Source: Minisyncoccia bacterium (GTDB lineage: Bacteria; Patescibacteriota; Minisyncoccia; Phycocordibacterales; Phycocordibacteraceae). Taken from it: DNA of 64,000 nucleotides. Positions 28,899 through 32,915 of this stretch are shown piece after piece (position 1 is the first letter of the stretch; every line of letters starts with the position of its first letter). The notes beneath the pieces were generated by a model. It ran no database searches. It had not been told where the DNA came from and saw only the letters and a list, made by a program, of their open reading frames with translations. Location of the stretch: positions 35,200-99,199 of the forward strand of contig JBBQUV010000001.1 of the NCBI GenBank assembly GCA_038212075.1, given 5' to 3'. Both the position numbers and the translations under genes were made by a program.

Positions 28899-28949
28899 AC
28901 CCTCACGGTCACCGCATTTTTTTGGTATGGTAGTGGAAGTGCGCTATTT

Positions 28950-29090
28950 GGGGGATCGTCTAACGGTAAGCAGAGCTTTCTGCCTGCGCTCGCTCGGAAC
29001 GGATAAGCAAAGCCTCATCCTTTCCTCGCTCGCTTGGCGGTAGGACAGCGGCCTTTGAAGCCAGTGATACGATAGAAATGTTCGATAATT
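28950..29090 (+). pseudogene. pseudo-tRNA: partial duplicate of tRNA-Gln (5' half and anticodon arm) split by a ~64-nt insertion, lacking T-arm and acceptor 3' strand
   Basis: GGGGGATCGTCTAACGGTA and GGACAGCGGCCTTTGAAGCC are identical to the downstream tRNA-Gln but are separated by an insert. The 3' portion diverges (AGTGATACGATAGAAATGTTCGATAATTT). Confidence 0.6.
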
Positions 29091-29092
29091 TT

Positions 29093-29161
29093 GGGGGATC
29101 GTCTAACGGTAGGACAGCGGCCTTTGAAGCCGTTAATTTTGGTTCGATTCCAAGTCCCCCA
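29093..29161 (+). tRNA. tRNA-Gln (anticodon TTG)
   Basis: Acceptor GGGGGAT/GTCCCCC, anticodon stem GCGGC/GCCGT with loop CTTTGAA, T-arm TTGG-TTCGATT-CCAA, discriminator A. Confidence 0.75.
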
Positions 29162-29164
29162 GCA

Positions 29165-29277
29165 AAAATGTGCGGAGCAGATTTTAGTGCGGGGAAGCGA
29201 GACGTCTGCACGTCTCGTGTCTTGGAATCGAACGCCGGAGCATGTTCCATTCAGCAGAATGGAACGGCGAGGCGGTG
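29165..29277 (+). repeat. structured element with an inverted copy of the tRNA-Gln T-arm, plus hairpins
   Basis: Hairpin cgagacgtctgcacgtctcg, CTTGGAATCGAA (reverse complement of the tRNA-Gln T-loop/stem), CGCCGGAGC, hairpin ttccattcagcagaatggaa, and ACGGCGAGGCGGTG. Shares motifs with the elements at 6040 and 13427. Confidence 0.5.
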
Positions 29278-29409: not shown

Positions 29410-29508
29410 AATTAGGACTAAGCACGTATGAGGGTTCCATTTGCGTTGCAGCGAAGTCCTTTTTGTTCAGGTCGTTGTAATTAACGCTTTGTCAAGTTAT
29501 AGTAAGTC

Positions 29509-29691
29509 ATGTATATGGAGGAAAATCCGGACATTCTGACACTAGAGCAAGCCAGTAAGCTCCTGAATTGCCACCCAAACACGTTGAGGAATTGGGACAA
29601 TAAAGGAATCCTGAAGGCCATTCGCTTTGGTACGCGGAAGGATCGTCGGTACAGAAAAAGCGACATACTTAAGCTGCTAAAACAAAAATAA
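29509..29691 (+). CDS. excisionase/MerR-family helix-turn-helix DNA-binding protein (Xis-like)
   Basis: 60 aa; LTLEQASKLLNCHPNTLRNWDNKGILKAIRFGTRKDRRY matches the HTH_17/excisionase pattern. Confidence 0.6.
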   Translation: MYMEENPDILTLEQASKLLNCHPNTLRNWDNKGILKAIRFGTRKDRRYRKSDILKLLKQK

Positions 29692-29693
29692 TT

Positions 29694-30620
29694 ATGAAAA
29701 ACTACTATCGCATAATGCTTGGACGAAAAAGTAGCCACGCTGATGAGGCACATAAGGGCAATTTCGTTGCGGCGGGCTTCATTAAAGACAAGGACCTCAC
29801 GCGTCACCTACCTGACAATTGGCGTGATTTTAATAAAGAATTCATCCCATTATTTCTTGATCAGAATCCTGAAAAGACAAAGATATCAGCGGGTCTCGCG
29901 TGCGGAATGCTCTGGACTGTCGCTAAGGGGGTTTTGGTGGGAGACATAGTGCTCTGCCCGGATGGTAAGGGTAGTTACTACGCAGGCGAGGTTACTGGCG
30001 AGTATGAATATCATAAGGGCGAAACGTTGCCGCATCGTCGGTCGGTTCGTTGGTTCACTCGTGCCATCTCACGTGACGAAATGAGCGAACCACTCAAGAA
30101 TTCAGCAGGTTCGATTGGTACGGTCAGCAATATAACGAAATATGCGGAGGAAATTGAGGCGCTAATTTCCGGCAGTCTTCCTGCCTCAATCATTTCGACT
30201 GATGCGACCATTGAAGACCCAAGCGAATTCGCGCTTGAAAAACATTTGGAGGACTTTCTTGTTCAAAACTGGCATGGCACAGAGTTAGGTAAGCGATTCG
30301 ATATTTATGAAGAGGATGGTGAAAAGGTTGGGCAACAATACCCAAGCGATACCGGTCCCATTGATATTCTCGCTATCAGTAAAGACAAAAAAGAGATAGC
30401 TGTCATCGAGCTCAAAAAAGGTCGTGCAAGTGATGTGGTCGTGGGACAAGTTCAACGATACATGGGGTATGTGAAAGAAGAATTAGCTGAAGACAATCAG
30501 TCCGTGCGAGGCATCATCATTGCGTTCGAGAATGATGTCAAAATAAATCGTGCCCTCTCTGTTGCTCCGAACATTGAGTTCTACACCTACAAAATCCACT
30601 TTAAGCTAGAGAAAAAATAA
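29694..30620 (+). CDS. two-domain protein: N-terminal unknown domain plus a C-terminal PD-(D/E)xK nuclease-fold domain (restriction-endonuclease-like)
   Basis: C-terminal GPIDILAISKDKKEIAVIELKKG.....GQVQRYMGYV, a D...E-L-K nuclease signature with a downstream Q..Y segment. It starts 2 nt after the xis-like gene. Confidence 0.55.
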   Translation: MKNYYRIMLGRKSSHADEAHKGNFVAAGFIKDKDLTRHLPDNWRDFNKEFIPLFLDQNPEKTKISAGLACGMLWTVAKGVLVGDIVLCPDGKGSYYAGEVTGEYEYHKGETLPHRRSVRWFTRAISRDEMSEPLKNSAGSIGTVSNITKYAEEIEALISGSLPASIISTDATIEDPSEFALEKHLEDFLVQNWHGTELGKRFDIYEEDGEKVGQQYPSDTGPIDILAISKDKKEIAVIELKKGRASDVVVGQVQRYMGYVKEELAEDNQSVRGIIIAFENDVKINRALSVAPNIEFYTYKIHFKLEKK

Positions 30621-30758
30621 TTTCATGAGCAAAAGAGAAACAAATTCAAGTATGTCCAAAGAGCAGGAGCGAGCAGAGGATTGATGTGGTTGAATTAAAC
30701 AAGTTTGCAAAGCTATATAAAAAAGAATTAAAACATTTTATAAATTAACTTTAATATT

Positions 30759-31376
30759 ATGGATTCAAAAGAAACAAAAAATATATGGATAGTGGTCGTT
30801 GTTATTGCATTGATAGCGGGTGCATATTATTTTGGCACAGCATCAAAAAATCAAACTGGAGTTACAGATAATACACAAGATACTAATACGCTTACACCCA
30901 CCCAAGAAACTGCCACGCAACAAAATCAGGTTGCTCCAGTTGTTACCATTAAACCAAAAGTTACTGTCCCACAGAATACATACACTAACTTCGAGTTGTC
31001 AGAAAATCCAAAATATTTATTTAGCAAAGATTTTAACCCAAATAAAGCAAAGGTCTTTGGAGTTGGTATAGGTGACTTAAGAAGTAATATTACTTCTATA
31101 GTACCTCAACAAGAATACGGAAGCTGGGTAAGAACAACAAATTCAACTGCATATCGTATAGTAAATGGCATAGTGGTGGAAATAGCGCTTAATAATGATG
31201 GCATAGCTAATCTTTTTAGGACAGATGAAATTATTATAAAATTCGGTCAATCAGACCAAACTAAAACAACCGGTAACCCTCCATACACTACGACCACCTA
31301 TTACTACGTAAACAGAGGCTTGGTTGTTTATGATTATGGATCATCGGGTATAAAAGTAAATATTATTGGCAACTAA
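30759..31376 (+). CDS. hypothetical membrane-anchored/secreted protein (AT-rich gene)
   Basis: 205 aa, N-terminal TM helix, Thr/Gln-rich linker. Noticeably lower GC than the flanking DNA. Confidence 0.45.
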   Translation: MDSKETKNIWIVVVVIALIAGAYYFGTASKNQTGVTDNTQDTNTLTPTQETATQQNQVAPVVTIKPKVTVPQNTYTNFELSENPKYLFSKDFNPNKAKVFGVGIGDLRSNITSIVPQQEYGSWVRTTNSTAYRIVNGIVVEIALNNDGIANLFRTDEIIIKFGQSDQTKTTGNPPYTTTTYYYVNRGLVVYDYGSSGIKVNIIGN

Positions 31377-31381
31377 AATGT

Positions 31382-32287
31382 TTGAACAGAGCTGAGTTTT
31401 TTATGTCTATACCAGAAAACTTTTTTAAAGATTCGAACGGAATAATCAAGTGGCACCAAGAACACCACCCGAAATCTTACGAAAGCTATTTTCTGATAAA
31501 AGAGAAAGTTAAAAATTCCAAATTTTCTGGCTCGGCTGGACTTCTGCGAAATTTAGAAGGAAATAAAACTGTCACAGGATTTCTGTCTTTTTTGACTGAA
31601 ATAAATCTTGCCAATTTGTTTTTGGATAAGAAGGTTAAAGATTTGTCTTATGAACCGAAACATATGTCTGGTGTTGATTTCTCTTTTAATGACATCGCGA
31701 TATCTGTTAAGAATCTCCACCCAAAAAATTACGAAAAGAGCGAACAACAAGTAATAGATGCATTTCGTACGGCAGGAGGCGGTAAAACGAGTTTGACTCA
31801 TAAAAACTTCTCCAGTATTGCTATTGAAGTTAAAAAAACTGAAATGGGTACTTATGGCTGGGAGAGGTTAGAAACTGGACACAGCGGATTTCTCGATAGT
31901 GATTTATACGAAATGTCTGCTCCATTAAATTACATTGGAAAATTTGAACAGTCAGATATAAAAAATAACAAAAGGGTCTTATTTTTCTTTATTCAATCAA
32001 GTGATTTTGCACAGTATTATATTCAAGATATCGTAATTTGGTATTTTGGATATCCTGTTGAAAAGTATCAACCAATTTTTCAGAACGATATGAATTGGTA
32101 TAACAAGCTTCTAAAAACACCTCCTAAGAAAAATAATATTGATGCAATCGTATTTATGTATGCACCCAATACCTTATTGAGCTGGCCACTTGGCTGTTTG
32201 GGTGATGTATCAGATAAGGCGGCACGATTACAGATTTATGCGAAGGAAAAATCTTTTTCCGAACAGATAAAATTAATTTTATCTTAA
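31382..32287 (+). CDS. hypothetical protein (AT-rich gene)
   Basis: 301 aa, Lys/Asn-rich, no recognised motif; lies 6 nt after the previous gene, so likely an operon. Confidence 0.45.
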   Translation: MNRAEFFMSIPENFFKDSNGIIKWHQEHHPKSYESYFLIKEKVKNSKFSGSAGLLRNLEGNKTVTGFLSFLTEINLANLFLDKKVKDLSYEPKHMSGVDFSFNDIAISVKNLHPKNYEKSEQQVIDAFRTAGGGKTSLTHKNFSSIAIEVKKTEMGTYGWERLETGHSGFLDSDLYEMSAPLNYIGKFEQSDIKNNKRVLFFFIQSSDFAQYYIQDIVIWYFGYPVEKYQPIFQNDMNWYNKLLKTPPKKNNIDAIVFMYAPNTLLSWPLGCLGDVSDKAARLQIYAKEKSFSEQIKLILS

Positions 32288-32483
32288 GGGAGCAATCCTC
32301 GCTGTTTTATAATATTTCCTAAAAACGGCGGGGATTTGTGCGCGAACGGGAGGGTGGCTCAAGCGCATTTGCATTTGAGCCTCGGACATTTTCGCTAGGG
32401 CGTCCTGACTCACGGATGAGCGCCGCCGTTATCTTGCAATACAGAAATTCGAAGCGGAAGCGACACCACATACAGTCGATATG

Positions 32484-32915
32484 AAAACGAGAAAGGGGGT
32501 TGGCTGAGCCGGTTGGTCGAGCCCTGCCGAGACGAGGCGAAGCTGGGGGAAGGATTCCTTCCCCCAAACAGTCTCCTGCCCTCGCACCGCTCCGCAGAGC
32601 GATAATACGCTGGGGTATGCGAAACGTCTTTTCAAAGAGGGGCGCCTGTCGGAGCAAGGCATTCACTTTTATAAGTTAGGCAGTGCAAAACCCACTCACG
32701 ATTACGGCATCCCTAAGAATCCTTCGATGCCAGTTGAGCTGAGTGAAATGCTCAAAAAGGACTCGAAGGCGAAAAAATTCTTTGAAGCATTTTCGCCCTC
32801 AAACAAAAAATCTATCTATCGCTGGATACTCAAAGGGAAACTTGAAGCAACAAGACAAAAGCGTGTTATGCACGTAGTTACTAAGGCGCGAGAAGGCAGT
32901 CGGGACGTAATTTAA
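32484..32915 (+). pseudogene. YdeI/OmpD-associated (DUF1801-like) family fragment; N-terminally truncated, with only the last 62 codons ATG-initiated (32727..32915)
   Basis: The C-terminal segment KAKKFFEAFSPSNKKSIYRWILKGKLEATRQKRV matches the YdeI C-terminal pattern. The frame stays open upstream to 32484 without a start codon. Confidence 0.4.

Follow-up and report, generated by a model that had tools for sequence, protein, structure and literature searches.

Four accessory genes beside tRNA-Gln in a Minisyncoccia bacterium: probably a mosaic of separate units rather than one defence system

Introduction

A stretch of 64,000 nucleotides from a Minisyncoccia bacterium (contig JBBQUV010000001.1 of assembly GCA_038212075.1, positions 35,200 to 99,199 of the forward strand), hereafter the window, carries four close-packed genes downstream of a tRNA-Gln gene, and the question raised by this locus is whether they make up one acquired phage-defence system or several unrelated acquisitions. 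A preliminary description had taken them for a candidate defence island, in which an excisionase-like helix-turn-helix (HTH) protein and a nuclease were followed by two AT-rich genes of a possible new defence or toxin system. The analysis points to another answer, which is held with a probability of roughly 0.6: the region is a mosaic in which three accessory units, each independently mobile, lie beside tRNA-Gln, and not one system. The four open reading frames (ORFs) proposed earlier were all present on the + strand, as follows (aa, amino acids).

29509-29691, + strand: ORF of an HTH-type protein of 60 aa, HTH_17/MerR/excisionase-type DNA-binding
29694-30620, + strand: ORF of a PDC-S02 family protein of 308 aa, full-length match in PADLOC
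30759-31376, + strand: ORF of an orphan protein of 205 aa, N-terminal membrane anchor and conserved domain
31382-32287, + strand: ORF of an orphan protein of 301 aa from a TTG start; the alternative ATG at 31403 gives 294 aa
30621-32287, + strand: AT-rich block with both orphan genes, 33.6% GC

Three units of different origin

Unit 1 (29509-30620) would consist of an HTH_17/MerR-type regulator co-transcribed with the PDC-S02 protein. Unit 2 (30759-31376) would be a membrane-anchored orphan whose conserved domain is presumably extracytoplasmic, and unit 3 (31403-32287) a rare orphan with the motif E...YE...D...(S/E/D)xK, probably a cargo gene, often carried on large-serine-recombinase elements. 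Units 2 and 3 would have come from low-GC donors and become adjacent by chance or in one joint transfer, but would not be functional partners. The independence of the units is indicated by their content of guanine plus cytosine (GC; 45% in unit 1 and 34% in units 2 and 3), by the presence of an HTH gene upstream in only 1 of 72 PDC-S02 loci, and by the lack of any co-occurrence of the 205-aa and 301-aa families.

The AT-rich block had a GC content of 33.6% against a mean of 48.6% (sd 2.2) in the other 1.5-kb segments (z = -6.9), and was the GC minimum among all such segments of the 64 kb. The GC at third codon positions (GC3) of its two genes was 0.25 and 0.31, compared with 0.42-0.51 in flanking genes. 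This block is compositionally foreign and imported, and the low GC noted in the preliminary description was borne out. The HTH-nuclease block, with 45.1% GC (z = -1.6), was not anomalous in composition, and the anomaly was restricted to the second half of the region (30621-32287).

In tBLASTn searches, co-occurrence of the 205-aa and 301-aa families was found neither in the loci of the 301 family (L001-L011, L101-L112 and a contig of JGI 3300050821) nor in those of the 205 family (L092-L100). Since no member of either family was present in the fetched loci of the other, the pairing is unique to the window, and the earlier proposal of a linked two-gene system had no conserved co-occurrence to stand on, a lack that the preliminary description itself had listed as refuting it. 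From these comparisons, the two AT-rich genes appear to be independent accessory orphans, with several homologues on mobile elements. The main practical result was a negative one, that the pair of 205-aa and 301-aa proteins is not a two-gene system to pursue.

The 294-aa orphan protein

The alignment of the 301 family favoured the ATG at 31403 over the TTG at 31382 as the start, giving a protein of 294 aa.

31403-32287, + strand: orphan protein of 294 aa (301 aa from TTG 31382), PD-(D/E)xK-like motif, then a C-terminal half of alpha/beta type
E66 (31598-31600), Y83-E84, D92 (31676-31678) and S101-x-K103 (31703-31711), + strand: motif residues, from alignments

The family was small, with 21 homologues in the homologue search and 47 clusters among 1.84 billion representatives in a full profile search. 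Full-length members had 253-312 aa and a similar layout, and the remaining clusters were fragments; a metagenome scan with a narrow alignment returned short contigs only, and no member was found in viral contigs. Among 30 diverse members, the best-conserved positions were E66 and N68 (on a helix), Y83-E84, D92-F93 and K103. The AlphaFold2 (AF2) model of the protein had a mean predicted local distance difference test score (pLDDT) of 92.2 and a predicted template modelling score (pTM) of 0.90, and its helices (H) and strands (E) were H57-75, E82-83, E93-95, E98-105, H109-124 and E127-131. The motif is thereby placed on the order helix, strand, strand (D92), strand ((S/E/D)101-x-K103), helix and strand, which in this model is suggestive of the canonical PD-(D/E)xK order. 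Three distant members had the canonical E-V-K or D-F-K at the position of S101-x-K103, and one member (P0188) gave a sub-threshold match to the Pfam model REase_DpnII-MboI exactly over the motif (E = 0.0025, 17.8 against 27 bits).

An S-x-K variant of the motif is characteristic of PD-(D/E)xK restriction endonucleases of the Cfr10I/NgoMIV type. The D...S-x-K of the 294-aa protein, with the conserved acidic residues E66, E84 and E111 nearby, may be likened to it by analogy only, whereas sequence or fold similarity to those enzymes could not be detected, and the gene had no methyltransferase partner in most contexts.

Several results speak against a nuclease. Most members of the family have Ser in place of the canonical acidic residue, the model gave no fold match with E<=0.001 in PDB and BFVD, and nothing was found in PDB by sequence or profile, including a profile of the core motif only. 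The alignment of the 301 family to the PDC-S02 family by hhalign had a probability of 0.7%, and searches of both the 205-aa and 301-aa proteins in Pfam, NCBIfam, PHROGs and PADLOC yielded no meaningful match. On balance, the proposal that the 294-aa protein is a divergent PD-(D/E)xK nuclease is tentative, falling somewhat short of an even chance on these alignments, and any nuclease activity of it would follow from the motif.

The next candidate, which is rated unlikely, is that the 294-aa protein is not a nuclease at all: its fold would be RNase H-like or an alpha/beta fold of an entirely new kind, and its role on mobile elements a different one, such as replication, partition or exclusion. 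The only recurrent weak structural matches were RNase H-like (RNase HI, the C-terminal half of UvrC, and PIWI), which also counts against a PD-(D/E)xK fold, and the elements E127-131, E137-145, E151-159, H165-182, E190-197 and H204-215 fit the order beta-beta-beta-alpha-beta-alpha. E157, D165 and D167 were conserved among the closer homologues, and in the locus L112 the family gene and that of a PIF1 helicase have 4 nt in common, with ParB adjacent. However, all the RNase H-like matches had E>0.01, template modelling (TM) scores of 0.1-0.35 and root mean square deviations above 12 Å; in the broader alignment only E157 of the three residues was still conserved at 90% or more, and the strongest conservation of the family lay in the segment of E66, E84, D92 and K103.

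A more ambitious form of the nuclease proposal is improbable as a whole. According to it, the 294-aa protein would be the founder of an undescribed nuclease family with a divergent PD-(D/E)xK core and a new alpha/beta domain, carried as single-gene cargo on serine-recombinase elements of small-genome bacteria of the candidate phyla radiation (CPR) type, and acting as a stand-alone immunity gene or as a selfish (addiction or homing) gene. Eight distinct contexts of the family were seen, plus eight short contigs, and those that could be grouped were the following.

L001, JGI 3300050821, L109-111 and L112: serine-recombinase elements with methyltransferase, HNH, DnaA_C, ParB or PIF1 genes
L011: insertion into a ribosomal-protein operon, with rplE and rpsH on either side
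L003-L006 and L007-L009: ordinary CPR neighbourhoods

A large serine recombinase was present within about 6 kb in four of the eight contexts, and apart from it no recurrent neighbour was found in the loci of the 205 and 301 families. Three of the eight (L001, JGI 3300050821 and L109-111) had a methyltransferase within 6 kb, which was never an adjacent conserved partner, so that a role in classical type II restriction-modification (R-M) is unlikely.

Two of these loci had further features. In L011 (3411-6038), an insert of three genes, encoding a HisKA kinase, the 301-family homologue and a 97-aa ORF, is situated between the genes of L5 and S8, a striking site for an accessory insertion; the homologue has 46% GC in a genome of 56% GC. 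In L112 (3720-5965), a ParB_N gene lies upstream of the homologue, which has a 4-nt overlap with the stop of the PIF1-type helicase gene, and a large serine recombinase is encoded at a distance of about 5.6 kb; this may be a CPR bacterium's plasmid- or prophage-like element.

Some promise of novelty is confined to the 294-aa family; for the rest, the finding is real but mostly ordinary. The family is rare, with a confident model and no known match, and could be studied structurally or biochemically at low cost.

The 205-aa orphan protein

The 205-aa protein had one hydrophobic span at aa 9-26 (30783-30836), followed by a low-complexity linker rich in Thr, Gln and Asn, which agrees with the earlier view of a membrane-anchored, Thr/Gln-rich protein. 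Family alignments revealed a conserved domain of about 125 aa beyond the linker, and this domain is presumed to be outside the cytoplasm. There were 18 homologues among 5.8 billion proteins, in four distinct genomic contexts, and no member was found in viral contigs.

L095/96: element with recombinase, ParB, PDDEXK_1 and integrase
L093/94: HEPN_AbiV-HTH neighbourhood
L092: Y1 transposase as neighbour
L098-100: plain chromosomal site

No match of note was obtained in Pfam, PADLOC or PDB (sequence and profile), and the weak matches in PHROGs and NCBIfam covered the anchor region only. The profile and PDB searches indicated no function for this protein, which is a weakness of the proposed explanation as far as unit 2 is concerned.

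The mobile element of L095 (753-1631 and 5193-5942) also encodes a separate NucS_C-like protein of 292 aa and a PDDEXK_1 protein; the latter, when compared by eye and without alignment, looks similar to the protein encoded next to PDC-S02, on its upstream side, in L017.

The PDC-S02 protein

The 308-aa protein of unit 1 matched the single-gene PADLOC candidate PDC-S02 over its full length (PDLC04799, E = 5.2e-158, aligned at 1-307 of 308; PDLC04824, E = 5.7e-156), with the same length and two-domain layout as in thousands of homologues, while the same scan matched neither orphan. The precomputed Pfam matches of the family include PF28530, so the N-terminal domain is not as unrecognised as had been stated, and by these profiles the nuclease is a further copy of an already catalogued candidate family. 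Its domains and catalytic residues are given below.

About aa 1-160 of the 308-aa protein, + strand: putative PUA-like (YTH/EVE/SRA-type) modified-base reader, from Foldseek on the model
About aa 178-308 of the 308-aa protein, + strand: NucS-like PD-(D/E)xK nuclease domain, from NucS_C and Foldseek
D224 (30363-30365), E239 (30408-30410), K241 (30414-30416) and Q252, + strand: catalytic residues, from alignments

The C-terminus matched the Pfam model NucS_C (E = 1.8e-9, 38.1 bits against a cut-off of 24) and also YhcG_C, and the C-terminal domain matched PDB 2vld with E = 4.8e-5. D224, E239-x-K241 and Q252 were invariant in two alignments of 35 sequences. Judged from these alignments, the nuclease site D224/E239-x-K241 is intact and the domain belongs to the PD-(D/E)xK superfamily, as had been read from the protein earlier.

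With the AF2 model (pLDDT 78.5), Foldseek found NucS/EndoMS at 1.4e-7 and the type IV enzyme MspJI at 2.7e-4, the latter with the whole protein aligned; the N-terminal domain matched the YTH domains of YTHDF1 (1.1e-3, prob 1.0) and YTHDC2 (5e-2, prob 0.89). The order of elements in this domain, beta-alpha-beta-alpha(alpha)-beta-beta-beta, fits the EVE pattern of PMC7641849. Bell et al. 2020 (PMC7641849) described PD-(D/E)xK nucleases to which EVE, YTH or DCD readers are fused, and an association of these fusions with type I R-M. In view of the Foldseek matches, the EVE-type element order and these fusions, the 308-aa protein is likely composed of a PUA-like reader and a NucS-like nuclease in a type IV-like layout, with the fold of the N-terminal domain assigned at moderate, not firm, confidence.

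By its modelled architecture, the protein resembles MspJI and the EVE/YTH/DCD fusions (PMC7641849), where a PUA-superfamily reader at the N-terminus and a PD-(D/E)xK nuclease at the C-terminus are likewise joined in one polypeptide, and the association of the family with type I R-M is also alike to that of the EVE/DCD fusions (PMC7641849). In contrast to these enzymes, the 308-aa protein has no SRA, EVE or YTH match in Pfam, its nuclease is NucS-like and not MspJI-like, and its family is conserved much more highly than is usual for such enzymes. Restriction of phages with modified DNA has been described for a NucS-like nuclease that is joined to another kind of base sensor (PMC12191111), which gives the modular logic of a sensor and a NucS-like nuclease a precedent.

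PDC-S02 would most likely be a single-polypeptide, type IV-like restriction enzyme. In such an enzyme, recognition of a modified base, or of some other non-self feature of nucleic acid, would fall to the PUA-like N-terminal domain, and the NucS-like PD-(D/E)xK domain (D224, E239-x-K241) would cut the DNA. No methyltransferase adjoins the gene in the window, which is compatible with a modification-dependent enzyme. In the operons hsdM-hsdS-[gene]-hsdR found elsewhere, PDC-S02 may cover modified phage DNA which escapes type I restriction. The defence-associated sensor-nuclease layout suggested by the preliminary description was upheld by the PDC-S02 match, by the NucS, MspJI and YTH folds and by the embedding in R-M operons.

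Spread and neighbours of the PDC-S02 family

More than 8000 homologues of the 308-aa protein were found at E<=1e-10. Neighbours and identities were taken from the best 80 (L012-L091) of 234 relatives in a scan of species-representative genomes. These 80 were 61-81% identical to the protein of the window, and spanned CPR groups, Gammaproteobacteria, Bacteroidota, Planctomycetes, Nitrosopumilus, Nanoarchaeota and Methanosarcinales, with the cultivable Flavobacterium sasangense (L091) among them; in viral contigs the family was found in two contigs only. The upstream neighbours in the 80 loci included 9 HsdS, 3 HsdM, about 3 HsdR and 2 YgjP-like proteins, and the downstream neighbours 11 HsdR, 5 HsdM and 2 HsdS. 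About one third of the examined homologues were embedded in type I R-M operons, between hsdS/hsdM and hsdR, and several of the genes overlapped a neighbour by 4 nt. The gene of the window differs from these in standing alone, with a small HTH gene upstream, outside a type I R-M operon.

Several points weigh against a type IV-like defence enzyme. One PDC-S02 representative in E. coli B gave no protection against T4, T5 and T7 (bioRxiv 10.1101/2024.09.26.614923), and the defence role of the family therefore remains that of a candidate. The Pfam models of EVE, YTH and SRA had no match in the 308-aa protein. The fold matches to MspJI and YTH had TM scores of 0.2-0.5 (0.4-0.5 for those behind the PUA-like assignment) and came from a model of pLDDT 78.5, which keeps the N-terminal assignment moderate. 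Bacterial copies and those of three archaeal lineages were 62-78% identical in pairwise comparison, and such identity across domains is unusual beside typical fast-evolving defence genes.

Some of the same facts would suit a conserved endonuclease of the NucS/EndoMS type that serves DNA repair or recombination, or else a selfish nuclease that travels with R-M operons as a hitch-hiker, with the HTH protein as its regulator. The best sequence and fold matches of the protein are NucS/EndoMS, its C-terminal PD-(D/E)xK domain being homologous to theirs; the unusual conservation across domains of life and the negative phage assay of one member could be read in this way, and some public records carry the annotation 'endonuclease NucS', others 'restriction system protein'. 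Yet the score against the NucS equivalog of NCBIfam (NF003270) was 44.4 bits, far below the cut-off of 216, with residues 203-302 only aligned, and the sequence match to NucS is limited to the C-terminal nuclease domain, while the N-terminal domain has no sequence similarity to that of NucS/EndoMS. The distribution of the family is patchy and resembles horizontal gene transfer, its context is type I R-M operons and not repair genes, and the overall architecture is also MspJI-like. This explanation is considered improbable.

For the type IV-like enzyme, the embedding of one third of the homologues in R-M operons and the identity of 62-78% between Bacteria and Archaea suggest that PDC-S02 accompanies type I restriction as a highly mobile accessory. 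Its likely reader domain points to phages with modified DNA, beyond T4, T5 and T7, as possible targets.

The HTH protein

The start of the 308-aa ORF is 2 nt past the stop codon of the HTH gene. The HTH protein matched HTH_17 (E = 2e-11) and MerR_1 (1.8e-8) of Pfam and mad1 of PADLOC (1.6e-9), and stayed marginally under the cut-off of the excisionase model TIGR01764 (2.2e-6, 27.9 bits against 28.8). An excisionase/MerR-type domain, as described before, is present in the form of the HTH_17-type domain; the excisionase function is not supported, since no integrase was found with four recombinase queries and no att (attachment) sites bracket the genes, and the label 'Xis' is abandoned with it.

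The HTH protein was also not part of a conserved module with the nuclease, as had been proposed. Among the 72 PDC-S02 loci with enough upstream sequence, the only one with an upstream HTH homologue was L027, from a Gracilibacteria genome, where a 52% identical HTH protein has the same position. The HTH protein probably regulates transcription locally, at the nuclease gene downstream of it, and in the window it would just control the expression of the nuclease.

A toxin-antitoxin reading of the HTH protein and the nuclease was tried and rejected; the nuclease is normally found without the HTH protein (71 of the 72 homologous loci), which makes such a pair unlikely.

A promoter-like site upstream of the HTH gene (29475-29503) was not above chance, and no inverted repeat that could serve as an operator was found upstream of this gene. 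Two short blocks, TGCGTTGC (29442-29449) and TCAAGTTA (29492-29500), are common to the upstream regions of the HTH genes of the window and of L027. From the comparison of these two sequences, they may be promoter or operator elements.

tRNA-Gln and signs of mobility

The features around the tRNA gene were as follows.

29092-29163, + strand: intact tRNA-Gln (anticodon TTG), ARAGORN; Rfam tRNA 60.9 bits
29394-29411, + strand: att-like 18-nt copy (17/18) of the 3' end of tRNA-Gln (29149-29166), from the repeat search
28947-29062, + strand: partial duplicate of tRNA-Gln (5' two-thirds), in pieces 28947-28968 and 29038-29062, each 100% identical

The att-like repeat noted in the preliminary description is real as this 18-nt copy (shuffled sequences gave a mean of 0.08 matches at <=3 mismatches), but it does not flank the genes. 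It lies upstream of all four, with no further copy found beyond 32287, and the region is thus not enclosed by the tRNA-derived repeat. The AT-rich block had no flanking direct or inverted repeats of at least 9 nt, and no recombinase or integrase was found in the 64 kb by tBLASTn with four serine/tyrosine recombinase queries from related loci only.

That all four genes are one acquired phage-defence island at tRNA-Gln, with the 205-aa and 301-aa proteins as a new two-gene defence or toxin system, is very unlikely: the genes share one strand and are close-packed, a tRNA and a repeat derived from it are nearby, the AT-rich block has a foreign composition, and single homologues of either orphan occur near HEPN_AbiV, methyltransferases, HNH and serine recombinases, but the two families were never together in other fetched loci, the repeat is upstream of all the genes with no copy to close an island, four recombinase queries detected neither a recombinase nor an integrase in the window, the two halves are 11 GC points apart, the 205-aa protein is apparently membrane-anchored with its conserved domain presumed extracellular, and PADLOC matched neither orphan.

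The surroundings of the tRNA gene showed some further traces. The two pieces of the partial tRNA-Gln duplicate, just upstream of the intact gene, are separated by an insert of 69 nt with CGGTA direct repeats at its flanks, and the 3' part is missing; this resembles the scar of an insertion or recombination at the tRNA. A perfect inverted copy of 13 nt (GTTCGATTCCAAG) of the T-arm of tRNA-Gln (29142-29154 / 29221-29233) is situated 66 nt downstream of the T-arm, and with the 18-nt copy of the 3' end it makes the segment 29164-29420 dense in tRNA-derived fragments.

Flanking genes

The region is an accessory islet of about 3 kb amid housekeeping genes and not a defence island, as it had been called. 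One flank contains the genes of topoisomerase I, SerRS, FtsQ, Dus and DnaX together with a matrixin-like protease, and the other those of a peptidoglycan (PG)-binding protein, PNPOx, ApbE and an RnfD-like protein. Behind the 294-aa gene, a spacer of 440 bp (32288-32726) with 51% GC had no convincing ORF, and a search of Rfam at the gathering threshold and at a permissive E-value found tRNA only, with nothing in this spacer. The next gene was the following.

32505-32915, + strand: probable truncated ydeI/OmdA-like gene, with the frame open upstream of the ATG to about 32505

Its C-terminal part of 62 aa (32727-32915) was the sole portion to score (Pfam OmdA, E = 2.4e-17), and this gene is probably a truncated ydeI-like gene at the right edge of the islet.

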